Source: Escherichia coli (GTDB lineage Bacteria > Pseudomonadota > Gammaproteobacteria > Enterobacterales > Enterobacteriaceae). Taken from it: DNA of 64,000 nucleotides. The first letter of the stretch is position 1, and each line of letters starts with the position of its first letter. The position numbers and the translations under genes are program-made. The notes beneath the pieces are model-generated. The model saw only the letters and a list, made by a program, of their open reading frames with translations, ran no database searches and had not been told where the DNA came from. The stretch lies in the NCBI RefSeq assembly GCF_013122565.1, contig NZ_CP053258.1. The stretch is one strand, 5' to 3'. Positions 5,152 to 43,947 of this stretch are shown here, piece after piece.

Positions 5152-8001
5152 TTGAAATACCTTGCTTCTTTTCGTACAACCCTGAAAGCCTCGCGCTACA
5201 TGTTCAGAGCATTGGCGTTAGTGCTCTGGCTGTTGATTGCTTTTTCATCCGTTTTTTACATCGTTAATGCGTTACATCAGCGAGAATCGGAAATTCGTCA
5301 GGAATTTAATCTGAGTTCCGATCAGGCTCAGCGCTTTATTCAACGCACCTCTGATGTGATGAAAGAGCTGAAGTACATCGCTGAAAATCGCTTATCGGTA
5401 GAAAACGGTGTGCTTTCCCCGCGTGGACGAGAAACGCAGGCAGATGTGCCTGCGTTTGAACCGCTGTTTGCCGACTCCGATTGTTCCGCAATGAGTAACA
5501 CCTGGCGAGGTTCTCTGGAGTCATTGGCGTGGTTTATGCGCTACTGGCGCGATAATTTTTCTGCGGCTTACGATCTCAACCGGGTATTTTTAATCGGCAG
5601 CGATAACCTCTGCATGGCCAATTTCGGTCTGCGTGATATGCCAGTGGAACGCGATACCGCGTTGAAAGCTTTGCATGAACGCATCAATAAATATCGAAAT
5701 GCACCACAAGATGATAGCGGCAGTAACCTCTACTGGATCAGCGAAGGTCCGCGCCCTGGCGTCGGGTATTTTTACGCGTTGACGCCAGTTTATCTGGCGA
5801 ACCGGTTGCAGGCGCTTTTGGGTGTCGAGCAAACCATCCGGATGGAGAACTTTTTCTTACCGGGTACGTTGCCGATGGGGGTTACCATTCTTGATGAAAA
5901 TGGTCATACCCTGATTTCGCTTACCGGACCAGAAAGCAAAATTAAGGGCGATCCTCGCTGGATGCAGGAACGCTCCTGGTTTGGCTATACGGAAGGGTTC
6001 CGGGAGCTGGTGCTGAAGAAAAATCTGCCACCCTCATCGCTAAGCATCGTGTATTCGGTGCCGGTTGATAAGGTGCTGGAACGCATTCGCATGTTGATCC
6101 TTAACGCAATTTTGCTGAATGTGCTTGCCGGAGCTGCATTGTTTACTCTCGCGCGGATGTACGAGCGACGTATTTTCATTCCGGCGGAAAGCGACGCCCT
6201 GCGACTGGAAGAACATGAGCAGTTCAATCGCAAGATTGTCGCCTCCGCGCCAGTGGGTATCTGCATTTTGCGTACCGCTGATGGCGTCAATATTTTAAGT
6301 AACGAACTGGCGCATACCTATCTCAATATGCTTACGCATGAGGACCGCCAACGACTGACGCAAATTATCTGTGGGCAGCAGGTCAATTTTGTTGATGTCC
6401 TGACCAGCAACAATACCAATCTGCAAATCAGCTTCGTCCATTCGCGCTATCGTAATGAAAACGTGGCCATTTGTGTGCTGGTGGATGTTTCTTCGCGCGT
6501 GAAGATGGAAGAGTCGTTGCAGGAGATGGCACAAGCAGCGGAACAGGCGAGCCAGTCAAAATCGATGTTCCTTGCCACCGTCAGTCATGAGCTGCGAACG
6601 CCGCTGTATGGCATTATCGGTAACCTGGATCTTTTGCAAACCAAAGAGTTACCGAAAGGCGTCGATCGTCTGGTGACGGCAATGAACAACTCTTCCAGCC
6701 TGTTGTTGAAAATTATCAGCGATATTCTCGATTTCTCGAAGATTGAATCGGAACAGTTGAAGATCGAACCGCGTGAGTTTTCACCGCGTGAAGTGATGAA
6801 CCACATCACCGCCAACTATTTACCGCTGGTGGTACGCAAGCAGTTAGGCTTGTACTGCTTTATTGAACCGGATGTGCCAGTGGCCTTAAATGGCGACCCG
6901 ATGCGTTTACAGCAGGTCATCTCCAACCTGTTGAGTAACGCCATAAAATTCACCGATACCGGCTGTATAGTTTTGCATGTCCGCGCTGATGGCGATTATC
7001 TCTCTATCCGTGTTCGCGATACCGGCGTGGGGATCCCGGCGAAAGAAGTGGTGCGCTTGTTTGATCCCTTCTTCCAGGTCGGAACGGGCGTACAGCGAAA
7101 CTTCCAGGGGACCGGTCTGGGTCTGGCGATTTGTGAAAAACTGATCAGCATGATGGACGGCGACATCTCGGTAGATTCAGAACCGGGAATGGGCAGCCAG
7201 TTTACCGTGCGTATTCCGTTGTACGGCGCTCAGTACCCGCAGAAAAAAGGCGTGGAAGGGTTGAGTGGTAAACGCTGCTGGCTGGCGGTCCGCAATGCGT
7301 CACTCTGTCAGTTCCTGGAAACCAGTTTGCAGCGCAGCGGCATCGTCGTAACAACATACGAAGGGCAGGAACCGACTCCCGAAGATGTGTTAATCACTGA
7401 CGAGGTAGTGAGTAAAAAATGGCAGGGCAGAGCGGTAGTGACCTTCTGTCGTCGACATATTGGTATTCCGCTGGAGAAAGCGCCAGGGGAGTGGGTACAC
7501 AGTGTGGCTGCTCCGCATGAGCTACCGGCATTGTTGGCGCGTATTTATTTGATCGAGATGGAGAGCGACGATCCTGCTAACGCTCTGCCGTCGACGGACA
7601 AAGCGGTCAGCGATAATGACGATATGATGTTTCTGGTCGTGGATGATCATCCGATTAACCGACGTCTGCTGGCAGATCAGTTGGGATCGTTGGGCTATCA
7701 ATGTAAAACCGCGAATGATGGCGTCGATGCGCTTAATGTACTTAGCAAGAATCATATTGATATCGTGCTTAGCGACGTCAACATGCCAAATATGGATGGT
7801 TACCGCTTGACGCAACGCATTCGTCAGTTGGGACTGACGTTGCCGGTAATCGGAGTAACTGCTAATGCGTTGGCTGAAGAGAAGCAGCGGTGTCTGGAGT
7901 CCGGTATGGACAGCTGCCTGTCGAAGCCGGTAACGCTGGATGTGATAAAACAGACGCTGACGGTATATGCCGAGAGGGTCAGGAAATCGCGGGAATCGTA
8001 G
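5152..8001 (+). CDS. rcsC: hybrid sensor histidine kinase RcsC (949 aa)
   Basis: 949-aa ORF starting MKYLASFRTTLK (TTG start), HisKA (SHELRTPL), HATPase and C-terminal receiver domain (VVDDHPINRRL). Confidence 0.95.
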   Translation: MKYLASFRTTLKASRYMFRALALVLWLLIAFSSVFYIVNALHQRESEIRQEFNLSSDQAQRFIQRTSDVMKELKYIAENRLSVENGVLSPRGRETQADVPAFEPLFADSDCSAMSNTWRGSLESLAWFMRYWRDNFSAAYDLNRVFLIGSDNLCMANFGLRDMPVERDTALKALHERINKYRNAPQDDSGSNLYWISEGPRPGVGYFYALTPVYLANRLQALLGVEQTIRMENFFLPGTLPMGVTILDENGHTLISLTGPESKIKGDPRWMQERSWFGYTEGFRELVLKKNLPPSSLSIVYSVPVDKVLERIRMLILNAILLNVLAGAALFTLARMYERRIFIPAESDALRLEEHEQFNRKIVASAPVGICILRTADGVNILSNELAHTYLNMLTHEDRQRLTQIICGQQVNFVDVLTSNNTNLQISFVHSRYRNENVAICVLVDVSSRVKMEESLQEMAQAAEQASQSKSMFLATVSHELRTPLYGIIGNLDLLQTKELPKGVDRLVTAMNNSSSLLLKIISDILDFSKIESEQLKIEPREFSPREVMNHITANYLPLVVRKQLGLYCFIEPDVPVALNGDPMRLQQVISNLLSNAIKFTDTGCIVLHVRADGDYLSIRVRDTGVGIPAKEVVRLFDPFFQVGTGVQRNFQGTGLGLAICEKLISMMDGDISVDSEPGMGSQFTVRIPLYGAQYPQKKGVEGLSGKRCWLAVRNASLCQFLETSLQRSGIVVTTYEGQEPTPEDVLITDEVVSKKWQGRAVVTFCRRHIGIPLEKAPGEWVHSVAAPHELPALLARIYLIEMESDDPANALPSTDKAVSDNDDMMFLVVDDHPINRRLLADQLGSLGYQCKTANDGVDALNVLSKNHIDIVLSDVNMPNMDGYRLTQRIRQLGLTLPVIGVTANALAEEKQRCLESGMDSCLSKPVTLDVIKQTLTVYAERVRKSRES

Positions 8002-8210
8002 GACGGATAAGGTGTTTATGCCGCATCTGGCATTCAGTGCAAATGCCAGATGCGACGCTGACGCGTCTTATCTGGCCTACTTTAATGTAATCTGTTGAAA
8101 TAATGGGAATCGTAGGACGGATAAGGCGTTTACGCCGCATCCGGCAATCGGTGCAAATGCCAGATAAGACACTAACTAGTCTTATCTGGCCTACATCTGG
8201 CCTACAGATG
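7988..8210. repeat. REP/BIME element: two ~100-bp direct copies each containing REP palindromes (gtaggacggataagg...gccgcatccggca, cagataagac...gtcttatctg)
   Basis: direct repeat 7990-8090 vs 8103-8200 read in sequence; convergent rcsC/rcsB 3' ends. Confidence 0.85.
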
Positions 8211-8878: not shown

Positions 8879-11551
8879 CTACAGCAAGCTCTTGACATAA
8901 CTGTCAATGTCGCTGATGTATTTTTCTATTCCTGGAACATCCTTCTCACGAATCAGATGTTCCAGCGTTTCACATAACTGCTTGCCGGGTACCAGATTTA
9001 GCATGGCAAATACGCCTTTAAGACGATGAGCCGTTTGGGCTAACGCAGCAAAGTCACTGGTTGCTGCTTCAGTATACAGCCTCTTAACATCATCCGGTAC
9101 TGTGTCTACAAAGAGCGCATAATAGCCGCTGGCATGGAGTTGCGCATTTTCATCTCCGCCCAGAGGCGATTCTGTCACCTCTTCCTGCGCCAGTTGCACT
9201 TCAATTAATTGTAAGACCGCTTCCTGCATAGCGTTGCTCATATTGAAGTTGACGCACAATTGACCAGGCCCAATTTCCCGTACGCCAGACTCATCATCGC
9301 TTAAAAGCAAGCCAGAGGCAGTAAGATTAGACGGATTATCCGTTAAAAAGATATCATAATCTTGACTAATTAATCTTTCATCGGGTGTGATACAGGTTGC
9401 ACCCCAATTTTCTAACTGGCGAGTGACAATATTCCGAATTTCTGCCGAAGTAACATCCACCATTACGCAGACATCATCCAGTAAACGCTCTTCTTCCTCT
9501 TCAACTTCCGGGTCAGCTGCGAGCATTTTGATATGCACAGAGTAGCGTGTACCAAGCCCATCCCGCGTTTTGATGTTTAAATGACCGCCCAGTTTACGCG
9601 CCAGTTGATCGCTCAGCCAGAATGCCAGCGGGTCCGCCTTGCCATAGCGATCGTTTTGGGTCTGGTTGATAAACGGGAAGTGCAAATTATCCATTTCATG
9701 AATACTTACGCCTTCTCCCGTGTCCAGAATGCGGAACGTCAGGCGGTCTTCGGAGGACTCATCCTGATCAACCTCAAGGGTGATTTTTCCCAATTGCGTT
9801 GAGGTCACGGCATATTGCATCAGTAGCAGCAAAATACGTCGTAAGGCATCGCGATCGCCGCGGCGCATATCGTGTGCTTTCAGATGATTGTTAATCAGCA
9901 GTTGCAGACCTTTACGCTTGATGGCAGGCAACACTGAAGGCACAACTTCATCAATTAAATCCTGCACGGAGAACAGCACCGTCTCACTTTTCCAGCTATC
10001 GTCCGCAAGCATGTTCGCTAACTGTATTTCATCGACCAGCCGCACCAGCACATCTGCCTGATTCGCCAGTTGTTTGCTTTCCGGGGCGTTGAGTTTAGCC
10101 GCGCTCTCCGCCAGGGACTGTGCGGGTTCTTTCAGCGCATCGCCAATGTTTTTCATAAAGGTCATCCGCCCCTGCTGGTTTTTCTCATACAGACGCTGCG
10201 CCTGCTTGAGTTTCTTGTTTACCAGCACTTCGCGATCCTGATCGCGAATAATGAAAATTTGTGTGCGCGGCGCAACCTGGCTGCGGAACATGCGGATCTC
10301 ATACAGCTCGTTATTGATCGTCGCCTGAATAATCCCCTGATGCTGTTCCGCCATGGTGGTGATGTTTTGCAGATTCAAATGCGGCAGCAAATGATCGGCA
10401 ATTTTGTTACTTATGACAGTGCGGTTCGATTCCTGATCGTGAACCAGCAGGCCGAGCGGCAGCAGTGAGACTATCTCTTCATTAATTGCCCGTAAAATGC
10501 GCAATTCGTTATTGACCGCCGTGTTGGGTAGACTTTCTGTACTGCGACTGGAGAAATGGCGGAATGTGGTATAGCCAAATAACGCCAGCGCCAGCAAACC
10601 GATGTTCAGCAGCAGTGGCAGCAGAATGTTTTGCAACGTATCCAGCAATAAGGTGCCATAAGGAACCTGCCAGACCAGGCGCATATCGGTAGAGTTGAGT
10701 GCCGAGGAGATTTCAATCTTCGTACTGTTAAAGTGGATACTGACGCTATCCGTCCCTTCTTTCTCATTATCATTGTTTCCCGTTGCCGTCGCGTCTGGCT
10801 CAAGGCGGAAACTGTCCAGCGGCATACCCGGTGGGATCAAATCATTAATCGGCAGATCAAAAGCCACGACCGTTGCCAGATGTCCCGGCTGGTTGAACGT
10901 GGTACGCAAGGTAAAGTAATGACCGTTCTGCCAGGCCAGGCGGCGCATGTTAGAAAAACTTTCGCGTTCATCGAGGGCGTTGGCCTGTTGCAACATCTCT
11001 GCACGACGTGAATCAACAATGTCACTGACGGTCGATTCTTTAAATCCGGAGGTGAGATCTTTGAGGGGCAGGGTTGAGATCAGCACCAGACTGTTATCCT
11101 GACCATTCAGGTAATACATCGACCACGGTACATTTTCTGCGCCCCACAATGTATCCAGATAAGTGGACATCCGCTGAGTCATCTCAAGCGTTGAGTTGTC
11201 GTGAGAGCCAAAGATTAACGCTTCCGTTTTGCGACGCGGTTTTTCCAGATAGTAGACATCCTGTTTCAGGCGCGTCTCTTGTAAACCTTCGCCGGAGGAG
11301 GGGGAGGTCGTCGCGGCAATGTTGTCGTAGATCTGCCAGGTCACGTAACGCCAGGTATCGACGCGCTTTTGGATTGCGTGGGTAATGTCGACAATCTGGT
11401 AACTTTTATCTTTCAGCCAGGCGTTAACGGCGCTTTGTACCATTACACCCATCGTCACCAGTAACACAATGATCAACAGTAAAAAGAAGCGGGTAATGCT
11501 CCCCGGTAGGAGTGAAAAGCGGGTCGTGGCCGTTGTCTCTTTCTGACGCAT
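8879..11551 (-). CDS. rcsD: phosphotransfer intermediate RcsD (YojN), 890 aa
   Basis: 890-aa ORF immediately upstream of rcsB, N-terminal membrane segment, HPt-like C-terminus. Confidence 0.93.
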   Translation of the reverse strand: MRQKETTATTRFSLLPGSITRFFLLLIIVLLVTMGVMVQSAVNAWLKDKSYQIVDITHAIQKRVDTWRYVTWQIYDNIAATTSPSSGEGLQETRLKQDVYYLEKPRRKTEALIFGSHDNSTLEMTQRMSTYLDTLWGAENVPWSMYYLNGQDNSLVLISTLPLKDLTSGFKESTVSDIVDSRRAEMLQQANALDERESFSNMRRLAWQNGHYFTLRTTFNQPGHLATVVAFDLPINDLIPPGMPLDSFRLEPDATATGNNDNEKEGTDSVSIHFNSTKIEISSALNSTDMRLVWQVPYGTLLLDTLQNILLPLLLNIGLLALALFGYTTFRHFSSRSTESLPNTAVNNELRILRAINEEIVSLLPLGLLVHDQESNRTVISNKIADHLLPHLNLQNITTMAEQHQGIIQATINNELYEIRMFRSQVAPRTQIFIIRDQDREVLVNKKLKQAQRLYEKNQQGRMTFMKNIGDALKEPAQSLAESAAKLNAPESKQLANQADVLVRLVDEIQLANMLADDSWKSETVLFSVQDLIDEVVPSVLPAIKRKGLQLLINNHLKAHDMRRGDRDALRRILLLLMQYAVTSTQLGKITLEVDQDESSEDRLTFRILDTGEGVSIHEMDNLHFPFINQTQNDRYGKADPLAFWLSDQLARKLGGHLNIKTRDGLGTRYSVHIKMLAADPEVEEEEERLLDDVCVMVDVTSAEIRNIVTRQLENWGATCITPDERLISQDYDIFLTDNPSNLTASGLLLSDDESGVREIGPGQLCVNFNMSNAMQEAVLQLIEVQLAQEEVTESPLGGDENAQLHASGYYALFVDTVPDDVKRLYTEAATSDFAALAQTAHRLKGVFAMLNLVPGKQLCETLEHLIREKDVPGIEKYISDIDSYVKSLL

Positions 11552-11862: not shown

Positions 11863-11956
11863 AAAAAAAAACCGGATGCGAGGCATCCGGTTGAAATAGG
11901 GGTAAACAGACATTCAGAAATGAATGACGGTAATAAATAAAGTTAATGATGATAGC
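11863..11956 (-). ncRNA. micF: MicF antisense sRNA
   Basis: reverse complement of 11863-11956 reads gctatcatcattaactttatttattaccgtcattcatttctgaatgtctgtttacccctatttcaaccggatgcctcgcatccggtttttttt; divergent from ompC; intrinsic terminator hairpin plus U-run. Confidence 0.95.
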
Positions 11957-12104
11957 GGGAGTTATTCTAGTTGCGAGTGAAGGTTTTGTTTTGACATTCA
12001 GTGCTGTCAAATACTTAAGAATAAGTTATTGATTTTAACCTTGAATTATTATTGCTTGATGTTAGGTGCTTATTTCGCCATTCCACAATAATCTTAAAAA
12101 GTTC

Positions 12105-19934: not shown

Positions 19935-20300
19935 ATGTGCCACATCCGGCATGGTATGCCGGATGTGGCGTATGCTGATAAGACGCGCCAGCGTCGCATC
20001 AGGCAACCGGCTTGGGTGTTAGATGTCGGATGCGGCGTAACCGACTTATTCGACCTACGGGGTGGAGCACTTCACAGCGGTGTAGGCCTGATAAGACGCG
20101 TCAGCGTCGCATCAGGCAACCGGCTCGGACGTTGGATGTCGGATGCGGCGTAACCGCCTTATCCGACCTACGGGGTGGAGCACTTCACAGCGGTGTAGGC
20201 CTGATAACACGCGTCAGCGTCGCATCAGGCAACCGGCTCGGGCGTTAGATGTCGGATGCGGCGTGACCGCTTTATCCAACCTACGGGGTGCCGCACTTCA
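19935..20300. repeat. tandem array (about 3 copies, 113-bp period) of a REP-containing unit (BIME-like)
   Basis: ataagacgcg[c/t]cagcgtcgcatcaggcaaccgg recurs at 19978, 20091 and 20204 (period 113 bp); palindromic ggatgtcggatgcggcgtaaccg units. Confidence 0.9.
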
Positions 20301-32294: not shown

Positions 32295-33343
32295 GGTTTT
32301 TATTGGGCGTGCTGATGCTGATGATCTCCGGCTCAGCGCTGGCGACCATCGACGTGTTGCAGTTTAAAGATGAAGCACAGGAACAACAGTTCCGTCAGCT
32401 CACTGAAGAACTGCGCTGCCCGAAATGCCAGAACAACAGCATTGCCGATTCCAACTCGATGATTGCCACCGACCTGCGCCAGAAAGTGTATGAACTGATG
32501 CAGGAAGGTAAAAGTAAAAAAGAGATTGTCGATTATATGGTGGCGCGTTACGGCAACTTCGTCACTTACGATCCGCCGTTAACGCCGCTGACCGTATTGC
32601 TGTGGGTGCTGCCAGTAGTGGCTATTGGCATTGGCGGTTGGGTCATATACGCCCGCTCGCGGCGTCGGGTACGCGTGGTGCCGGAAGCGTTTCCTGAACA
32701 AAGCGTGCTGGAAGGTAAGCGTGCCGGATATGTTGTTTATCTGCCGGGTATTGTGGTGGCGTTAATTGTGGCTGGCGTCAGCTACTACCAGACTGGCAAT
32801 TATCAGCAGGTGAAAATCTGGCAGCAGGCCACGGCACAGGCTCCGGCGTTGCTGGACAGGGCGCTGGATCCGAAAGCTGATCCGCTCAACGAAGAAGAGA
32901 TGTCGCGCCTTGCGCTGGGGATGCGTACTCAACTGCAAAAAAATCCGGGAGATATAGACGGCTGGATTATGTTGGGCCGCGTTGGCATGGCGCTGGGTAA
33001 CGCCAGTATTGCCACCGATGCATACGCTACTGCATATCGCCTCGATCCGAAGAACAGTGATGCTGCACTGGGTTACGCTGAAGCGTTGACACGTTCATCT
33101 GATCCCAACGACAACCGCCTGGGGGGTGAACTACTACGCCAGTTGGTGAGAACGGACCATAGCAATATCCGTGTGTTAAGCATGTATGCGTTTAATGCCT
33201 TTGAGCAGCAGCGATTTGGCGAAGCCGTTGCCGCGTGGGAGATGATGTTGAAACTCTTACCTGCCAACGATACTCGCCGTGCTGTGATTGAACGTAGTAT
33301 CGCGCAGGCGATGCAACATTTGTCGCCGCAGGAGAGTAAATAA
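32291..33343 (+). CDS. ccmH: cytochrome c heme lyase subunit CcmH, 350 aa
   Basis: N-terminal LRCPKC motif, C-terminal TPR-like region. Confidence 0.94.
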   Translation: MRFLLGVLMLMISGSALATIDVLQFKDEAQEQQFRQLTEELRCPKCQNNSIADSNSMIATDLRQKVYELMQEGKSKKEIVDYMVARYGNFVTYDPPLTPLTVLLWVLPVVAIGIGGWVIYARSRRRVRVVPEAFPEQSVLEGKRAGYVVYLPGIVVALIVAGVSYYQTGNYQQVKIWQQATAQAPALLDRALDPKADPLNEEEMSRLALGMRTQLQKNPGDIDGWIMLGRVGMALGNASIATDAYATAYRLDPKNSDAALGYAEALTRSSDPNDNRLGGELLRQLVRTDHSNIRVLSMYAFNAFEQQRFGEAVAAWEMMLKLLPANDTRRAVIERSIAQAMQHLSPQESK

Positions 33344-33380
33344 AAAGTGGCCCGATGGTGATTCCATCGGGCTATTTTTA
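33344..33380. terminator. bidirectional intrinsic terminator between ccmH and narP (gcccgatgg...ccatcgggc flanked by A-run/T-run)
   Basis: hairpin with flanking aaaaa / ttttt. Confidence 0.8.
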
Positions 33381-34025
33381 TTGTGCCCCGCGTTGTTGCA
33401 GGAACAGAATGGTGGCCGCCACGCGTGAGCGGACATTGAGTTTACGCAGCAGATTGCGAATATGTACTTTTACTGTCTGCTCGGAAATATTCAACACCGA
33501 GGCAATTTGTTTATTTGACAGCCCCTGTGCCAGCTCGTGCAGAACATCCAGCTCGCGCTCCGTCAGCACGCTGAAGGGATCTTCTTCCGCGCCAAACATT
33601 TCACGTTCACGCAAGTACTGATTGACGCGTTCGCTAAAGACTTTGCTGCCTTTCGCTCCGGCACGAATCGCTTCCAGCAACACTTCCGGGTCGCTGTCTT
33701 TCAACAGATAACCGTCTGCGCCTGCGTCTATCAGCGCAAAGACATCGCTGGAGGCATCTGATACGGTCAGGATAATAATTTGCGCGGTAACGCCATCCCT
33801 GCGCAAGGCATTGAGGGTATCCAGGCCACTCATACCTTTCATATTGAGATCCAGCAAGATCACGTCGATATCCAGTCTATTCGCCAGATCGATAGCACTC
33901 GCGCCGTCGCCTGCTTCGGCGACCACTTCAAAGCCAGGATCAAGCTCCAGTAACTGACGAACACCGCGTCGCATAAGTGGATGATCATCCACAATCATCA
34001 CCTGAAAAGGCGTTGCTTCAGGCAT
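33378..34025 (-). CDS. narP: nitrate/nitrite response regulator NarP, 215 aa
   Basis: MPEATPFQVMIVDDHPLMRRG receiver domain, LuxR HTH C-terminus; start trimmed from track ORF. Confidence 0.95.
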   Translation of the reverse strand: MPEATPFQVMIVDDHPLMRRGVRQLLELDPGFEVVAEAGDGASAIDLANRLDIDVILLDLNMKGMSGLDTLNALRRDGVTAQIIILTVSDASSDVFALIDAGADGYLLKDSDPEVLLEAIRAGAKGSKVFSERVNQYLREREMFGAEEDPFSVLTERELDVLHELAQGLSNKQIASVLNISEQTVKVHIRNLLRKLNVRSRVAATILFLQQRGAQ

Positions 34026-34344
34026 AGTAGTCTCCTGAGGTTTTATTAGAATCATTATGTTTGAGCGTAGCGTTGGTAACGCTACCAGGCGCGTGAATGT
34101 TACCCCATTTTATGTATGGACATGTAGTGAAAACTACAACCTTGTCGTTCGCTTCGGCATCATTTTCATTATAAAGACGGAATTTTGCATCAGCTTCTCA
34201 TCAAGAAAAACACCTAAAAAATCAATCACAATACTTGTGCATTTCTTTAAACAGTTTTTAAAAACTGACTCCGGGTATGGAGCTATGGGTATTTTCCGTA
34301 CCCAATGCTTTTAACAGCAATTAATTTCATAGGATGAAAGCTCA

Positions 34345-36936
34345 ATGCATCAATCTGGTTCTGTTTCTCTTTGTCGTTCCGCAATATCTGTTCTGGTGGC
34401 TACAGCGTTATATTCACCCATAGCATTGGCATCAACAGTTGAGTATGGTGAGACAGTTGATGGTGTTGTCCTGGAAAAAGATATCCAGCTGGTTTATGGG
34501 ACCGCCAATAATACGAAAATCAATCCTGGCGGAGAACAGCATATTAAAGAATTTGGTATAAGTAGTAATACTGAAATTAACGGCGGGTATCAGTACATTG
34601 AAATGAATGGCACCGCAGAATACTCCGTATTAAATGATGGTTATCAAATTGTTCAAATGGGTGGCGCGGCAAACCAGACTACCCTCAATAATGGTGTGCT
34701 ACAGGTTTATGGCGCAGCGAATGATCCCACGATTAAAGGCGGGCGCTTAATCGTTGAAAAAGATGGGATTACCGTCCTTGCCGCTATCGAAAAGGGAGGA
34801 TTACTGGAGGTTAAAGAGGGGGGGTTAGCGATTGCGGTAGATCAGAAAGCCGGCGGTGCTATTAAAACAACCACGCGGGCCATGGAGGTATTCGGAACAA
34901 ACCGTCTCGGTCAGTTCGATATCAAGAATGGTATTGCTAACAATATGCTGTTGGAAAACGGCGGAAGTTTGCGAGTTGAAGAAAATGACTTCGCTTATAA
35001 TACTACTGTAGATAGTGGCGGCTTACTGGAGGTTATGGATGGCGGGACTGCAACTGGCGTTGATAAAAAAGCAGGCGGAAAATTAATTGTCTCAACGAAT
35101 GCGCTGGAAGTGAGTGGTACAAACAGTAAAGGCCAATTTAGTATAAAAGATGGTGTGTCAAAAAATTATGAACTGGACGATGGTTCCGGGCTCATTGTTA
35201 TGGAGGACACGCAGGCCATTGATACTATCCTTGATGAGCATGCCACTATGCAATCGCTGGGAAAGGATACTGGTACGAGAGTGCAGGCAAATGCGGTATA
35301 TGATCTGGGTCGATCAGATCAGAATGGAAGTATCACGTATTCCTCTAAAGCCATCTCTGAAAATATGGTTATCAACAATGGCCGCGCTAATGTCTGGGCA
35401 GGCACAATGGTTAACGTTTCAGTCAGAGGGAATGATGGCATTCTTGAGGTCATGAAGCCGCAAATAAATTATGCACCCGCTATGTTGGTGGGTAGTGTCG
35501 TGGTTTCTGAGGGCGCTTCTTTAAGAACGCATGGTGCCGTGGATACCAGCAAAGCGGATGTTTCGCTCGAAAATAGCTCATGGACCATCATTGCCGATAT
35601 CACTACGACGAACCAAAACACCCGCCTCAATTTAGCCAACCTTGCGATGTCTGGCGCAAATGTGATTATGATGGATGAGCCAGTGACTCGTTCATCTGTG
35701 ACGGCAAGTGCGGAAAATTTCACTACGTTGACCACCAATACCCTGTCGGGAAACGGCAATTTTTATATGCGTACCGATATGGCTAATCATCAGAGCGATC
35801 AGCTCAACGTCACCGGACAGGCAACAGGTGATTTCAAAATATTCGTGACGGACACCGGTGCCAGCCCGGCAGCAGGAGATAGCCTTACACTGGTAACAAC
35901 GGGCGGCGGTGATGCTGCATTTACGTTGGGCAATGCCGGAGGCGTTGTTGATATCGGTACGTATGAATATACCTTGCTGGATAATGGCAATCATAGCTGG
36001 AGTCTGGCAGAGAATCGCGCGCAAATTACCCCTTCAACCACTGATGTGCTAAATATGGCGGCAGCACAACCGCTGGTATTTGATGCAGAACTGGACACCG
36101 TGCGTGAGCGTCTTGGTAGCGTAAAAGGCGTTAGTTACGATACGGCGATGTGGAGTTCGGCAATTAACACCCGCAACAACGTGACCACTGATGCGGGCGC
36201 TGGTTTTGAGCAAACATTGACGGGCCTGACGCTCGGTATCGATAGCCGTTTCTCCCGTGAAGAAAGCAGTACAATTCGCGGCTTGTTCTTTGGTTACTCT
36301 CATTCTGATATTGGTTTTGATCGCGGCGGCAAAGGCAATGTCGATAGCTATACCCTGGGTGCTTATGCCGGTTGGGAGCATCAGAACGGTGCCTATGTTG
36401 ATGGGGTGGTGAAAGTTGACCGTTTTGCCAACACCATCCATGGCAAGATGAGTAATGGGGCAACAGCGTTTGGCGATTACAATAGTAACGGCGCGGGTGC
36501 TCATGTTGAGAGCGGGTTCCGTTGGGTTGACGGATTGTGGAGTGTTAGACCCTATCTGGCCTTTACCGGCTTTACCACAGATGGTCAGGACTACACGTTA
36601 TCAAACGGCATGCGCGCGGACGTGGGAAATACCCGGATATTACGCGCTGAAGCGGGAACGGCGGTAAGCTATCACATGGACCTGCAAAACGGTACGACGC
36701 TGGAACCCTGGCTGAAAGCCGCCGTGCGTCAGGAATACGCCGATTCTAACCAGGTGAAAGTTAATGACGATGGCAAATTTAATAATGATGTGGCTGGAAC
36801 CAGTGGCGTTTATCAGGCTGGGATAAGGTCATCGTTTACCCCGACGTTAAGCGGTCATTTGTCAGTCAGCTATGGCAATGGCGCAGGGGTAGAATCACCG
36901 TGGAATACTCAGGCGGGTGTGGTCTGGTCGTTCTGA
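34345..36936 (+). CDS. yejO: autotransporter adhesin-like protein YejO, intact 863 aa
   Basis: N-terminal signal peptide, repetitive passenger, C-terminal beta-barrel ending VVWSF; adjacent to tRNA-Pro as yejO is. Confidence 0.85.
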   Translation: MHQSGSVSLCRSAISVLVATALYSPIALASTVEYGETVDGVVLEKDIQLVYGTANNTKINPGGEQHIKEFGISSNTEINGGYQYIEMNGTAEYSVLNDGYQIVQMGGAANQTTLNNGVLQVYGAANDPTIKGGRLIVEKDGITVLAAIEKGGLLEVKEGGLAIAVDQKAGGAIKTTTRAMEVFGTNRLGQFDIKNGIANNMLLENGGSLRVEENDFAYNTTVDSGGLLEVMDGGTATGVDKKAGGKLIVSTNALEVSGTNSKGQFSIKDGVSKNYELDDGSGLIVMEDTQAIDTILDEHATMQSLGKDTGTRVQANAVYDLGRSDQNGSITYSSKAISENMVINNGRANVWAGTMVNVSVRGNDGILEVMKPQINYAPAMLVGSVVVSEGASLRTHGAVDTSKADVSLENSSWTIIADITTTNQNTRLNLANLAMSGANVIMMDEPVTRSSVTASAENFTTLTTNTLSGNGNFYMRTDMANHQSDQLNVTGQATGDFKIFVTDTGASPAAGDSLTLVTTGGGDAAFTLGNAGGVVDIGTYEYTLLDNGNHSWSLAENRAQITPSTTDVLNMAAAQPLVFDAELDTVRERLGSVKGVSYDTAMWSSAINTRNNVTTDAGAGFEQTLTGLTLGIDSRFSREESSTIRGLFFGYSHSDIGFDRGGKGNVDSYTLGAYAGWEHQNGAYVDGVVKVDRFANTIHGKMSNGATAFGDYNSNGAGAHVESGFRWVDGLWSVRPYLAFTGFTTDGQDYTLSNGMRADVGNTRILRAEAGTAVSYHMDLQNGTTLEPWLKAAVRQEYADSNQVKVNDDGKFNNDVAGTSGVYQAGIRSSFTPTLSGHLSVSYGNGAGVESPWNTQAGVVWSF

Positions 36937-36995
36937 TAACAGAAAATAAACAGGCTGTGATGTGTCGCGGTCTGTTTATCGAATTAAATGCAGAT

Positions 36996-37030
36996 ATAAA
37001 AAAACCAACCGTAAAGGTTGGTTTTTTTTG
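36996..37030. terminator. intrinsic terminator (ccaaccgtaaaggttgg + T8) shared by yejO and the convergent tRNA
   Basis: hairpin followed by tttttttt, preceded by A-run. Confidence 0.85.
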
Positions 37031-37037
37031 GGATTTT

Positions 37038-37114
37038 TGGTCGGCACGAGAGGATTTGAACCTCCGACCCCCGACACCCCATGACGGTGCGCTACCAGGC
37101 TGCGCTACGTGCCG
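37038..37114 (-). tRNA. proL: tRNA-Pro (GGG anticodon), 77 nt including CCA
   Basis: reverse complement reads CGGCACGTAGCGCAGCCTGGTAGCGCACCGTCATGGGGTGTCGGGGGTCGGAGGTTCAAATCCTCTCGTGCCGACCA. Confidence 0.93.
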
Positions 37115-37188
37115 ACTCGTGGCTGTTAATACTACCGTTTTCCACACCGATTGCAAGTAAGATATTTTGCTAACTGATTTATAATTAA

Positions 37189-38949
37189 TCAGTTAGCGAT
37201 AAAACGCTTCTCGTCTGTCAGTACTTGCAATAACAAACTTAACTGTGGTTTTTCATCTTTCACTCTTTCACCACGTAAGTTGTAAGTACGGTATTTACCG
37301 TTATTGTTCAGCACCAGCGTCTTTTTCGGGGTGGTAATTGCCAGCGTATCGTTATCCGCGGCGGTAACCCAGTAATGACGGCGTTGAGGGTTGAACAAAT
37401 CCTGACCTTGCGAATATTCGCTGGCAGGTGTGCTGACATGTAGCAGGCGTTGCATCAGCGTCGTCATCAGATCGGTATGATCAGTCAGAGCATTAATACG
37501 CTGCGCCGGCGTGCCTGGCCAGTGAATCACTAATGGTACCTGCAGATGACCGTGGGACCAGTCAAAGGTTTCTTCCTCTTCGCTCAGCGGAATACCCCGA
37601 CCGGCAGTGATAATCACCACCGTATTGTCCAGTTTGCCAGAATCACGCAGTGCATTGAGCACGCGGTTGATCTGGTCATCGACATTGCCTGCCGCCCGGC
37701 TATATTTCCGTGAAAATGCCTGCTGATTGCTGTCGTCAATGTTAGTGCCATTGAAAGAGACCCACGAGAACCAGCGGTTATCTTCTTGTGCGTAGCGGCC
37801 CAGCCAGTTGATCCACTGCGTGGCGGTCTGCTCGTCGGATTGGGTGCGTACGCTCGGCATCGAGAAATCTGACAACAATGCCTGGCGATACAGCGGGCTG
37901 GTAAAGCCATCTGACGAGAATAACCCCAGCTGATAGCCTTGCTGATTAAGCGCAGTAATTAACGCCGCAGGGGTACGGGTCGACAGAATGCCGTCCATAT
38001 AGCTCGGCGAGATGCCATAGAACAGGCCAAAGATGCCGTTGTCTGTAGTGTTGCCGGAGCTCATATGGCGCGTGAACGAAATATTTTGCTCAGCAAAACC
38101 TGCCAGCGCAGGCATCTGCTTCTCGAAGCGTGAGTAGTTCAGGCCATCGACAGTAATCAACAGCACATTCTGCCCAGTGCCCATATCGCGATAGCGCAGT
38201 TCGCTTAACGGATACTGAACGGAAACGGCGTCTGGATTACCTTGCTCAATAAGACGGCGTTGATACTCCTGCGCATCAAGCAGGCCATGCTTCTCAAGAA
38301 AACGTCGCGCCGTCATCGGGTACGAAAGCGGCAGGTTAGCGCGCTGCATGGTGATCGGGCGATAGAAGTTGGCATCGGCCCAGATATACACCACATGCGA
38401 GGCGATAAAGGCGATAAATAAGAATGCGGCCAGCGGGCGCGCGAAGCGTCGACGACGCGTCAGGCTGCGCAGCTTTTGCCAGCTCCACGTCGCAAACACC
38501 AGTTCAAGCAATAAAATAACCGGCACGCTGATGAACATCAGCTGCCAGTCGCGCGCCATCTCATTTTCGTCTGGGTTGATAACCAGTTGCCAGACGATGG
38601 GATTAAGATGGAGATGGAAACGAGTAAAGACTTCGCTATCGATCAGTAATAGCGTCATTCCCGCCGTTGCCAGAATGACGGACAAAAACCTCATCAGCCT
38701 CTGGGAGCCGACGATAAAGGTCAGCGGGAAGAGGATTAGCAAGTAGGTGGCAAACACCAGGAAGCTGAAATGGCCGATAATGCTTACGTAGGAATAAATG
38801 CGACCAGCAAGCGTGGTCGGCCAGTCGGCGATAAACAGGTAACGGCTGCCAATGACGAGCGAAAGCAGAATATTGAACAGTGCAAACCAGTGCCCCCAAC
38901 TGACCATCTGGGAGACTTTTTCACGGTAGCGCTGACGATGAGTTACCAT
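37189..38949 (-). CDS. yejM: inner membrane protein YejM (PbgA/LapC), sulfatase-like periplasmic domain, 586 aa
   Basis: 586-aa ORF, N-terminal TM helices, position after proL. Confidence 0.93.
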   Translation of the reverse strand: MVTHRQRYREKVSQMVSWGHWFALFNILLSLVIGSRYLFIADWPTTLAGRIYSYVSIIGHFSFLVFATYLLILFPLTFIVGSQRLMRFLSVILATAGMTLLLIDSEVFTRFHLHLNPIVWQLVINPDENEMARDWQLMFISVPVILLLELVFATWSWQKLRSLTRRRRFARPLAAFLFIAFIASHVVYIWADANFYRPITMQRANLPLSYPMTARRFLEKHGLLDAQEYQRRLIEQGNPDAVSVQYPLSELRYRDMGTGQNVLLITVDGLNYSRFEKQMPALAGFAEQNISFTRHMSSGNTTDNGIFGLFYGISPSYMDGILSTRTPAALITALNQQGYQLGLFSSDGFTSPLYRQALLSDFSMPSVRTQSDEQTATQWINWLGRYAQEDNRWFSWVSFNGTNIDDSNQQAFSRKYSRAAGNVDDQINRVLNALRDSGKLDNTVVIITAGRGIPLSEEEETFDWSHGHLQVPLVIHWPGTPAQRINALTDHTDLMTTLMQRLLHVSTPASEYSQGQDLFNPQRRHYWVTAADNDTLAITTPKKTLVLNNNGKYRTYNLRGERVKDEKPQLSLLLQVLTDEKRFIAN

Positions 38950-40385: not shown

Positions 40386-40765
40386 ATCTCCAACGCGAAT
40401 GTTTCTTTTCGGAGAAACAGTTGCGGGATAATCACAATTCTTGTCAATCAGTTAGTGAGATGACTTGCTGATTGACCTTTCATTCGAAAATGTTTTCTCT
40501 GTTATTATACTTAGTGTTACTGAAAATATTATTCTCTTATCCCCTTTATTCGATAATAAATCGGTCTGGTCACTATTTCCGCCGTTTTTTGTGAGCTGTA
40601 ACACTGGAAAAATCATTCTGTTTAATTATATTGAGTTTACTTGGCGTTATATGTTGTTATTTGCTTTGACTATATAAAATGCAAATGTATTCTTAATGTC
40701 AATATTATTGTCGTTATGTTTGACTCATTATATTAATCGTATGAATAGTTTTAAGGATTCACCGC

Positions 40766-41338
40766 ATGGAGCAAGAAAATCCTGAAGATAGAAAGTGTTG
40801 TCGACCGAAAAAAACGTTCTCTTTAACCAGAAAATTACTGGTATGTTTTATCTTTACCCTCATTGTATTCAGTGGTTGTTTATTTGTCGTTATGAACACG
40901 GTCATTCATAACACCAGCACTGACAGCTTTTGCCTGGGTTGTCATGAAATGAAAGACAACATCCTTACCGAGAGTTTCAAAAAATCCATTCATGGCAGTA
41001 ATCGTACTGGCGTGAAAGTCGCTTGTGCCGATTGCCATATTCCTGATGAATTTGTCCCTAAGATGATCAGAAAAGCCCACGCCGTTAAAGAGGTTTGGGG
41101 GCATATGACAGGCGTAATTGATACGGCCGATAAATTCGATGCACATCGTGGCGAAATGGCAAAAGCGGAATGGGCAAGAATGAAAGCAAACAATTCGCAG
41201 GAATGCAGAGACTGCCACGATATTTCTAAATTACAGAAAAAATTTATGGCGCCGTTCCATGAGGCTTCTCTTAAAGAAGGGAAAACATGCATTGATTGTC
41301 ATGCCGGCATTGCACATAAATTACCAGCAGTTCATTAG
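40766..41338 (+). CDS. NapC/NirT/CymA-family membrane-anchored tetraheme cytochrome c (putative quinol dehydrogenase), 190 aa; NapC paralog
   Basis: N-terminal TM helix (LLVCFIFTLIVFSGCLFVV), four CxxCH (CLGCH, CADCH, CRDCH, CIDCH); shares blocks VPKMIRK, NNSQECR-CH, TCIDCH-GIAHKLP with the napC in this window. Confidence 0.85.
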   Translation: MEQENPEDRKCCRPKKTFSLTRKLLVCFIFTLIVFSGCLFVVMNTVIHNTSTDSFCLGCHEMKDNILTESFKKSIHGSNRTGVKVACADCHIPDEFVPKMIRKAHAVKEVWGHMTGVIDTADKFDAHRGEMAKAEWARMKANNSQECRDCHDISKLQKKFMAPFHEASLKEGKTCIDCHAGIAHKLPAVH

Positions 41339-41431
41339 TCATTAATACATGAATGTCATGTCTGTCTGGTTTCAAATAAAAACAAGAAGGGTTTCATGTT
41401 GATTTAAGTTTTTATGTAAAAGGACCATGTT

Positions 41432-43072
41432 ATGAGGAAACTAAAAAGGGGATTCTTATTGGCTGGGGTATTAACGGCACTTTCTCTAAGCGCTTATGCT
41501 GACAGAAATATGAATAAGATCCCGCATATCAATCTGTCGAATCCATCCGTCGAACCAGTTAGTGAGAGAATAATCCAAACAGATATTGTTGTTATTGGCG
41601 GTGGGCTTTCTGGCATGTCCGCAGGGTTGACTGCAGTACAGGGCGGAGCCAAAGTTGTTATTTTTGAAAAACTACCAAGCCTTGGAGGGGCAGGCGTTTA
41701 TCCTGAAGGCAGTTTAGGCATTGGCACCCTTATGCAAAAAAAAGAGGGGAAAGGTGCCACGCTGAATCAAGCCTTTGGTAAGGCGATCGATTTCCATCAC
41801 TGGCGAGCCAATGCTAGTGCATTGCACGCATTAATGAAAAACTCAGGCGAAACCATTGATTGGGTTGCCAGTAATGGCGTTGAGTTTACGACCTTAAAAA
41901 CCACCATTTATCCTCAGTCAGATTCATTATGGACCTGGCATATGTATAAGCATAATGGTGCATCTGTTACTAAAAGCTTTTACAAGAAGATCCTTGATGG
42001 AGGTGGGCAAATCTACACCGAAACTCCTGTTAAGAAGATTCTTCGCGACAAACAAAGCGGTGATGTCGTTGGCGTCGAAGCGGTTAATAGCGTAACAGGG
42101 GAAAAAATCATTGCCTATGGTAAGGGTGTGATTGTGGCGACCGGTGGTTTTGCCAACAACCGTGACATGATTGAAAAATACATCACCGATGTGAATCAGA
42201 AAAACATGGTGCCGGTCAAACTACGTGGCCCCCTGATTGATGGACGCGAAGGCGATGGTATCAAAATGGGGCAAGACATTGGCGCTGATACTGCCGGGAT
42301 GCAAACCATTGCTGGCAATAGCCCATATGTCGATCAAGACCCTCCTATCCGTCAGTTTAATGGCGCGGATTACCAAAAACAGGCCAGAACGTCATTAAGC
42401 CAGCCATTCCTGTGGATTAACCGACAAGGCGAGCGTTTCTTTGATGAGTCACTCGGTTCCAGTTTTACCCTCGTTTATAACGCTATCACCATGAATGGCG
42501 GAGTCATGTATTCTGTCTGGGATGATGCAATGCGCCAGAAGATGGTTAACGAAGGGCCGGTTACACCGTTTAACGCCATCGTGTTGCCTGGGCAGCCGAT
42601 GAAGGCGCTGGATCAGGCGATCGAAATCGGCATGAAAGAAGGGTGGTTATTTAAAGGTGAAACGTTGGACGATCTGGCAAAACAGATCAATGTTCCTGCA
42701 GACAATCTGAAAGCGACGATTGCGAAAGTAAACAAGTATACGGATGAAGGTTTCGATCCTGACTGGGGGCGCAAGAAAGAGCATCTGTTTAAATTTCAGG
42801 ATAAAGGACCGTATTACGCCGTGAAAGGTATTCGGGCTTATTTCCTGACGCTGGGTGGTTTGAAAATGAACAGCGATCTGCAGGTCTACGATACCAATGA
42901 GAAGATTATCCCAGGTCTGTATGTTGTCGGGCAGGATATGGGCGGTCTGTATGACAGCTCCTATGATTTGGTACTTGAAGGATCGGCTTCTGGCTTTGCG
43001 TTGACGTCGGGACGTATGGCAGCGAAACATATTATAAGCACCAGAGTGCAGGCACAGGGAGGAGGCAAATGA
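41432..43072 (+). CDS. exported FAD-dependent flavoprotein of the fumarate-reductase/succinate-dehydrogenase flavoprotein (FAD_binding_2) type, 546 aa; substrate unknown
   Basis: N-terminal signal peptide MRKLKRGFLLAGVLTALSLSAYA; dinucleotide fold DIVVIGGGLSGMSAGLTA...EKLPSLGGAG; C-terminal GLYVVGQDMGG; no CxxCH. Confidence 0.8.
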   Translation: MRKLKRGFLLAGVLTALSLSAYADRNMNKIPHINLSNPSVEPVSERIIQTDIVVIGGGLSGMSAGLTAVQGGAKVVIFEKLPSLGGAGVYPEGSLGIGTLMQKKEGKGATLNQAFGKAIDFHHWRANASALHALMKNSGETIDWVASNGVEFTTLKTTIYPQSDSLWTWHMYKHNGASVTKSFYKKILDGGGQIYTETPVKKILRDKQSGDVVGVEAVNSVTGEKIIAYGKGVIVATGGFANNRDMIEKYITDVNQKNMVPVKLRGPLIDGREGDGIKMGQDIGADTAGMQTIAGNSPYVDQDPPIRQFNGADYQKQARTSLSQPFLWINRQGERFFDESLGSSFTLVYNAITMNGGVMYSVWDDAMRQKMVNEGPVTPFNAIVLPGQPMKALDQAIEIGMKEGWLFKGETLDDLAKQINVPADNLKATIAKVNKYTDEGFDPDWGRKKEHLFKFQDKGPYYAVKGIRAYFLTLGGLKMNSDLQVYDTNEKIIPGLYVVGQDMGGLYDSSYDLVLEGSASGFALTSGRMAAKHIISTRVQAQGGGK

Positions 43073-43479
43073 GTAAGCTATTGAAGAACATTGTCACAAT
43101 CATTCTTGCTGGCGTAATGTGCACCGTTATCGGTATGGTTTCTGCCAGTGCACAAGAGATTGTCGGCATGAAAATGCACAAGACCATTGGTCTGGAATGT
43201 AATAACTGCCATGTTGATGATGTTAAAGCCAACAAGAATATGACGCCAACGTGCGTTAGCTGCCATGCGCCTGGTGAGCGTTATTATCATGGTAAGAAGG
43301 ATTCAGAAGGTAACTCAGTGTTAAAAGAGTATCCGGAGTCGGGTAAAACACGAGTTGCGTCTTTCCATGACTCTCATGGCGGGGAAATTCGCTGTACGGT
43401 ATGCCATACGTCACATGAGAAGGAACCACAGCCACTCTATTGCAACAACTGCCATCAGTTTGATGTGAAGATTAAGTAG
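43069..43479 (+). CDS. small periplasmic tetraheme cytochrome c, 136 aa
   Basis: signal peptide, four CxxCH (CNNCH, CVSCH, CTVCH, CNNCH) in ~110 mature residues; ATGA overlap with upstream flavoprotein gene. Confidence 0.85.
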   Translation: MSKLLKNIVTIILAGVMCTVIGMVSASAQEIVGMKMHKTIGLECNNCHVDDVKANKNMTPTCVSCHAPGERYYHGKKDSEGNSVLKEYPESGKTRVASFHDSHGGEIRCTVCHTSHEKEPQPLYCNNCHQFDVKIK

Positions 43480-43501
43480 TGAAGGTATTTGTCAGTCGCT
43501 G

Positions 43502-43540
43502 AAAAAGAAAACGGCCCGTAAAGGCCGTTTTCTTTTGTTC
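43502..43540. terminator. intrinsic terminator (aaacggcccgtaaaggccgttt + T-run) between the island operon and convergent rplY
   Basis: GC hairpin flanked by gaaaaagaaa and ttcttttg. Confidence 0.85.
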
Positions 43541-43554
43541 AACTTATTCAGCAA

Positions 43555-43947
<393 letters not shown>

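Follow-up and report, generated by a model that had tools for sequence, protein, structure and literature searches.

The yejO Locus

The DNA analysed here (the window) is a stretch of 64,000 nucleotides from an Escherichia coli genome (contig NZ_CP053258.1) that carries an uninterrupted copy of the autotransporter gene yejO. The open reading frame (ORF) lies at 34345–36936 on the plus strand, runs from ATG to TGA, and spans 2592 nt, a length divisible by three that comprises 863 codons and the stop. Re-translation of this interval revealed no internal stop codon and no frameshift; the terminal TGA is the sole stop, as the initial annotation of the window had proposed. The exact 863-residue sequence is present in NCBI (QJU27709.1 / WP_171460606.1) under the name "autotransporter YejO [Escherichia coli]".

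On the upstream side lies the divergent gene narP, coding for a response regulator of 215 residues (33378–34055, minus strand). Downstream follow the convergent tRNA-Pro gene proL (anticodon GGG; 37038–37114, minus strand), which lies 101 nt past the yejO stop codon, and yejM, a gene of 586 codons (37189–38949, minus strand). The names used here are those of annotated E. coli genomes, and the order found in these genomes (ccmH-narP-yejO-proL-yejM, with narP and yejO divergent and yejO and proL convergent) is kept in the window. Judged by the synteny narP-yejO-proL-yejM and by near-identity to the K-12 gene, the gene at 34345–36936 is yejO.

The K-12 counterpart (b2190, "adhesin-like autotransporter YejO") is a pseudogene with the same neighbours and the same length as the window copy. 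In the K-12 genome annotation it appears as two pseudogene fragments parted by an IS5 transposase gene, which agrees with the statement in the initial annotation that yejO is disrupted in this strain. By blastn and by reading of the junctions, the 1195-bp IS5 maps to window positions 34408–34411 (plus strand), at codon 22 within the signal peptide. The four base pairs TTAT stand on either side of IS5 in K-12 and are uninterrupted in the window. With IS5 in this codon no product with a signal peptide is possible in K-12, whereas the window copy has no such interruption. Without IS5, which was deleted in silico, the K-12 frame is open, with 839 of the 863 residues (97.2%) identical to the window protein. 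The 24 differences include a cluster of substitutions private to the window protein at residues 384–460. The window protein ends in WSF, as do other E. coli YejO proteins, and the K-12 protein ends in WTF. The yejO gene is also one of the eleven IS5 sites of strain BW25113 (PMC11677980).

Domain Architecture and Structural Relatives

All parts of the protein described in this section are encoded on the plus strand. The N-terminus consists of an n-region (MHQSGSVSLCR, with the arginine at position 11), 15 hydrophobic residues (12–26), and the sequence A-L-A|S at position 29/30, which conforms to an AXA motif. By inspection, residues 1–29 (34345–34431) are predicted to form a Sec-type signal peptide with cleavage at ALA|S. 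We modelled the structure with AlphaFold2 from 71 homologues and obtained a mean predicted local distance difference test (pLDDT) score of 86.9. Residues 1–27 are disordered in this model (pLDDT <50), and a β-helix starts from about residue 30. The passenger (residues 30–560; 34432–36024) appears by AlphaFold2, Foldseek and phmmer as a right-handed β-helix with rungs of ~18.5 residues. Its short strands recur every 17–20 residues in the model, and the helix is uninterrupted. The Pfam family AIDA (PF16168) gives two strong matches in this region, at residues 184–245 (3e-24) and 257–315 (1.5e-21), and weak ones across residues 51–171.

The C-terminal part of the passenger (residues 431–555; 35635–36009) is a pertactin-like domain (PF03212, 7.2e-45; pertactin structure 1DAB, 3e-18), and its position suggests an autochaperone role. 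An α-helical linker follows at residues 563–592 (36031–36120). It is modelled as a helix with pLDDT >90 and is predicted to fill the pore of the barrel. The β-barrel translocator comprises residues 600–863 and the stop codon (36142–36936) and is recognised by PF03797, TIGR01414, AlphaFold2 and Foldseek. The autotransporter β-domain PF03797 matches residues 602–841 (2.6e-45), and the TIGR01414 model is passed with 372 bits at a cut-off of 16 (4e-111). The secondary structure of the AlphaFold2 model contains 14 strand elements within residues 600–862, which we read as a putative 12-strand barrel of the outer-membrane type. The C-terminus QAGVVWSF was judged against the β-signal consensus that outer-membrane proteins present to the β-barrel assembly machinery (BAM), and represents an aromatic-terminal β-signal. 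The initial annotation had described a signal peptide, a passenger and a barrel ending in Phe. Inspection, Pfam and the AlphaFold2 model recover all three, and with the pertactin-like domain and the linker helix they make up the full set of parts of a type Va autotransporter.

Searches against the Protein Data Bank (PDB) place the passenger closest to Ag43 (Flu/Ag43a and Ag43b; 4KH3, 7KOH, 7KO9, 7KOB), which is the best match both by sequence (phmmer, 1.8e-37) and by fold (Foldseek, 6.5e-21). The best Foldseek hits are 7KOH, 7KO9 and 4KH3, at 22–25% identity. Ag43 and YejO share AIDA-type rungs of ~19 residues, a pertactin-like passenger end and a type Va barrel, and their passengers are similar in size (about 530 residues). 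The two proteins are not orthologues, as YejO scores 132 bits with the Ag43 model NF033177 against a curated cut-off of 1200. In addition, the signal peptide of Ag43 is of the extended kind with 52 residues, compared with 29 in YejO. Superposition of the two passengers gave a root-mean-square deviation (rmsd) of 13–14 Å, which means that the trajectory of the helix differs or is unreliably modelled. Ag43 is further characterised by self-association and by phase variation through the Dam/OxyR sites of flu; we claim neither trait for YejO.

The glycosylated AIDA-type adhesins AIDA-I and TibA (4MEE, 4Q1Q) have PF16168 repeats and a TIGR04415 match in common with YejO, and the TibA passenger matches at 1.5e-26. 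YejO differs from AIDA-I by having far fewer repeats and by a score of only 71 bits with the AIDA-I model NF033176 (cut-off 1200). Genes for AIDA-I and TibA adjoin a heptosyltransferase gene (aah or tibC), whereas the neighbours of yejO are narP and proL. For the barrel, the best superposition was found with the β-domain of BrkA (3QQ2; TM score 0.90, rmsd 2.9 Å), followed by EspP (TM score 0.82), Hbp and NalP. Vag8 aligns over residues 460–862 (phmmer, 2.8e-36), and BrkA and pertactin were also retrieved by phmmer. In contrast to these Bordetella proteins, YejO has an N-terminal passenger of the AIDA/Ag43 type, and we do not claim RGD-type or serum-resistance traits for it. We conclude with high confidence that YejO of the window belongs to the classical monomeric (type Va) autotransporters, falls into the AIDA-I/Ag43 class by structure, and is encoded by an intact chromosomal gene of an E. 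coli lineage.

Duplication within the Passenger

The tandem duplication that the initial annotation had seen in the passenger is real, with the first GGLLEV motif at nt 34795. Copy 1 covers residues 149–220 (34789–35004) and copy 2 residues 223–294 (35011–35226), both on the plus strand. The copies align without gaps over 72 positions, with 36 identical residues (50%) and 118 of 216 identical nucleotides (55%). A Smith–Waterman alignment of the split sequence scored 175, compared with 28.8 ± 5.9 for 500 shuffles (highest 56). Autocorrelation of the passenger with BLOSUM scores peaks at a lag of 74 residues, with secondary peaks at 18–19, 37, 55, 93 and 112. In the AlphaFold2 model, the rungs of copy 1 start at residues 153, 172, 190 and 208, and those of copy 2 at residues 227, 246, 264 and 282. 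Because the strand starts recur as two sets of four, the duplicated unit is a 74-residue block of four β-helix rungs. The strand-loop-strand repeat model TIGR04415 (O_hepto_targRPT) is also passed, with 62.7 bits at a cut-off of 30.

Tandem Repeats Finder (minimum score 30) reported nothing between 34000 and 37200. The copies are too diverged in DNA for this program, and the duplication is therefore a protein-level repeat rather than a nucleotide tandem array. Blastp of YejO against itself returned the trivial identity match only. Both copies are present in orthologues with 92%, 89% and 76% identity, which implies that the block was already duplicated before the Escherichia species diverged. 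The duplication is ancient, and such a repeat structure is ordinary for a β-helix of the AIDA/Ag43 type.

Two rare alleles, P0080 (790 residues) and P0034 (799 residues), contain exactly one 74-residue unit fewer, with the copies fused at VDQ|KAGG. P0034 also carries a duplication of ten residues (RADVGNTRIL) in the barrel. These alleles, both singletons, indicate that unequal recombination between the copies can occur. An allele of 935 residues (P0016) was considered as a candidate for a third AIDA block and rejected; its 72 extra residues stem from a duplication within the pertactin domain that may be an assembly artefact.

Distribution and Inactivation of yejO

The initial annotation implied that an intact yejO is noteworthy, yet this is the common state of the gene. 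The protein is a named NCBI entry, and its cluster at 90% identity comprises 16,859 member sequences. A megablast search of 5,426 complete RefSeq E. coli genomes matched the locus in 5,421. In 4,281 of them, at least 80% of the gene is covered in one place, and in about 1,140 the coverage is below 80%. The low-coverage genomes among the matches listed (H24–H29) each cover 44–49% of a 3.2-kb region. From the full-length, single-piece loci we drew eight, spaced evenly down the megablast ranking; six are annotated as intact YejO of 863 residues, and the other two carry the nonsense mutation W789*. A passage of PMC3426408 that cites Wells et al. 2010 states that commensal and diarrhoeagenic E. coli have YejO and that it is truncated in uropathogenic E. 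coli (UPEC).

The W789* mutation (TGG to TGA; window 36709–36711) lies in the barrel and was found in three isolates (L005, L010 and L012) from Mali, Mexico and the USA. Each of these isolates differs from the window protein at 23 residues, the stop included. Unrelated as they look, they probably form one pseudogene-bearing clade. The ST131 strain MNCRE44 retains a yejO remnant, annotated as frameshifted and truncated, that lacks window positions 34817–35820 (1,004 bp) and 36278–36906 (629 bp). This remnant of a B2/ST131 strain arose by two separate deletions, the first of which begins inside repeat copy 1. A passage in PMC5654935 calls yejO "missing from ST131". Still other genomes contain IS2 or IS1 insertions in yejO. 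The gene is commonly intact; some lineages have lost it on repeated, independent occasions, through IS5, IS2, IS1, W789* and the ST131 deletions.

A contig with an orthologue of 76% identity has the same order, ccmF-dsbE-ccmH-narP-yejO-yejM-yejL-yejK. Since its flanks are only 88–90% identical to the window, this contig belongs to another Escherichia species. The shared synteny shows that yejO is ancestral to the genus at the position between narP and proL, and is core DNA.

proL as an Integration Site

The proL gene was identified by ARAGORN and by the Rfam tRNA model (54.9 bits), and an Rfam scan of 33300–37300 returned this tRNA only. The alignment of strain MLI107 with the window breaks off at 37086, a position within the 3′ half of the tRNA; beyond it lies an integrase-bearing prophage. 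This prophage (L005, from position 9089 on) is inserted between yejO and proL, and its genes include yfdR and those for an Arm-type integrase and a LexA-family repressor. Counted from the 3′ end of the tRNA, the junction lies at 49 nt, and the junction core corresponds to 37038–37086. Two further matches (H21 and H23) break at positions like that of the MLI107 junction. According to a passage in PMC4924310, the gtrIC prophage remnant of Shigella flexneri serotype 1c has tRNA-Pro and yejO at its borders. proL is a genuine integration site in other strains. A second copy of the tRNA 3′ segment is absent from the 64-kb window, and since this segment occurs only once, the attachment site is empty here.

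Flanking DNA and Composition

The divergent narP-yejO intergenic region (34056–34344) presumably contains the yejO promoter. These 289 bp are AT-rich, with a GC content of 37.7% compared with 51.3% for the whole window. A scan of the region for σ70 consensus sites returned none on the plus strand, and no promoter was identified. A passage in one paper terms PyejO "putative/uncharacterized". A mechanical ORF of 85 codons (34057–34314, plus strand) spans the same region. It is probably non-coding, because annotated genomes list no gene there. The passenger part of yejO has a GC content of 45%, against about 52% for the neighbours, and its GC content at third codon positions (GC3) is 46.5%, against 59.8% for ccmH. 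Between yejO and proL, a terminator scan detected a hairpin at 36998–37028 with a perfect 13-pair stem and a loop of five, bordered by an A-run at one end and a T-run at the opposite end. This element is probably a bidirectional terminator common to the two convergent genes.

Proposed Mechanism and Function

The architecture is what we observed, and the following export steps are adopted from the established type Va pathway. The signal peptide of 29 residues would direct YejO through Sec. BAM would then insert the C-terminal 264 residues as a 12-strand barrel by means of the aromatic β-signal (...GVVWSF), with the linker helix (residues 563–592) coming to lie in the barrel pore. Residues 30–560 would be threaded out and would fold vectorially from the pertactin-like end on the cell surface. 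The folded passenger would form a long β-helix of about 18 rungs, each with ~18.5 residues, a stalk that an old duplication of the four-rung, 74-residue block would have lengthened. The structural analogy with Ag43 and TibA makes adhesion or cell–cell aggregation the most likely role of the exposed helix.

Several points weigh against this interpretation. Expression and surface display of YejO are predictions, and the region upstream is AT-rich and devoid of a consensus σ70 site. YejO is a structural relative rather than an orthologue of a characterised adhesin. Because its scores fall far below the curated Ag43 and AIDA-I cut-offs, a ligand or an aggregation phenotype cannot be transferred with confidence. 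Within the window, no heptosyltransferase gene of the aah/tibC type adjoins yejO, which is flanked by narP and by tRNA-Pro/yejM. To our knowledge, Ag43 itself has no linked heptosyltransferase, so this trait is not needed for the wider class. In the literature on YejO we found no phenotype of the intact protein; the reports found use a K-12 ΔyejO mutant as a proxy for wild type, state the prevalence of the gene, or deal with IS5.

The most serious alternative is that yejO, though intact, is cryptic: transcriptionally silent in most conditions (for example, repressed by H-NS), under relaxed selection and at a stage before the decay that other lineages show. The composition of the gene and its upstream region, together with the negative promoter scan, would fit this explanation, as would the many independent inactivations (IS5, IS2, IS1, W789* and the B2 deletions) and the low rate at which K-12 yejO is detected in RNA-seq sets (106 of 3,376). 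This last figure, however, stems from a disrupted gene. Moreover, the frame is open over 863 codons here, in six of the eight sampled loci and in a species that is ~10–12% divergent in DNA, which argues for purifying selection, and orthologues hardly vary in the barrel and pertactin parts. We consider crypticity less likely than not. A different alternative would make the passenger a secreted enzyme or toxin, such as a SPATE-like protease or an esterase, instead of an adhesin-like stalk. Weak matches to the C-terminal β-helix of IgA1 protease (2e-10) and Hap (3e-9) might point in this direction, but they are confined to the pertactin-like stalk (query residues 400–571). The Pfam scan detected no peptidase, lipase or other catalytic domain, and the whole passenger is modelled as an uninterrupted β-helix, which makes an enzymatic passenger barely credible.

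Two further alternatives concern the history of the gene. The initial annotation had noted that yejO adjoins proL, a tRNA gene that often anchors variable DNA, which raises the question as to whether yejO is variable cargo of an element integrated at tRNA-Pro. The adjacency and the anchoring of prophages in other strains (MLI107 and the S. flexneri 1c remnant) are correct, and the GC content of yejO is indeed below that of its neighbours. In the window, however, the site is empty and no integrase lies nearby. Where strains carry an island, it is found between yejO and proL and leaves yejO outside, and the locus is present in nearly all complete E. coli genomes and, with the same synteny, in another Escherichia species. 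Prevalence, synteny and the single tRNA 3′ end led us to reject an origin of yejO from a tRNA island as highly improbable; yejO is not cargo. It is also very unlikely that the repeat in the passenger is an array of recent origin, prone to recombination, through which the surface protein varies in copy number or antigenically. The one-unit losses in P0080 and P0034 are the expected product of unequal recombination, but these alleles are singletons set against a cluster of 16,859 sequences, and two copies occur in all common alleles as well as in the orthologues with 76% and 89% identity. The nucleotide identity between the copies is only 55%, with no DNA repeat detected by Tandem Repeats Finder, and the 72 extra residues of P0016 lie in the pertactin domain, outside the repeat.

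Source Lineage and Other Features of the Window

The window segments tested are at best 98.3–99.1% identical to any of the 5,426 complete genomes, and the gene order is E. coli-like. The Logan assembly of SRR11451224 is 100% identical to the window over 8,592 bp. The window appears to come from a deep branch of E. coli that has been sampled sparsely. In E. coli, yejK and rplY are neighbours; in the window they are parted by a 3.1-kb cytochrome/flavoprotein module of three genes (40390–43560). These genes, all on the plus strand, encode a tetrahaem cytochrome of the NapC/NirT family (40766–41338), an FAD reductase of the flavocytochrome-c type with 546 residues (41432–43072; best NCBIfam model "vinyl phenol reductase", 312 bits, below the cut-off of 600), and a small multihaem cytochrome (43069–43479). 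The module has no megablast match in the 5,426 complete E. coli genomes, and a PADLOC search of the three-gene insert returned nothing relevant. The 90% cluster of the FAD reductase has 248 member sequences. The contig of the other, more distant Escherichia described above also has a NapC-like cytochrome gene directly after yejK and aligns with the window up to 40936. Hence the module may be an ancestral one that mainstream E. coli has lost. Rfam also detected three REP-derived naRNA4 elements (8001–8077, 8115–8191 and 20085–20168), the small RNA MicF (11864–11957) and, ahead of rplY, the L25 ribosomal-protein leader (43861–43886), all of which are expected for such an E. coli region.

Implications

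The intact yejO of the window is a known, annotated and widespread gene in its usual state, with a repeat that is usual for its class; both are already known. The K-12 pseudogene is the exception, which cautions against taking K-12 as the reference state. The inactivations described above are independent and we found no published functional test of YejO. For this reason we still entertain, as an unlikely proposal, that intact YejO functions in the adhesion or aggregation of commensal and environmental Escherichia and that its loss has been positively selected in some lineages. Candidates for such selected losses are the deletions in B2, UPEC and ST131 strains, the W789* clade, and the IS insertions in K-12 and other strains. 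If this proposal were true, yejO would be an "anti-virulence" gene or a gene for a phage or immune target, and the duplicated four-rung block would be an interaction surface. The intact allele may serve as a starting point for assays of adhesion and aggregation, and for addressing the question as to why lineages of extraintestinal pathogenic E. coli lose yejO.

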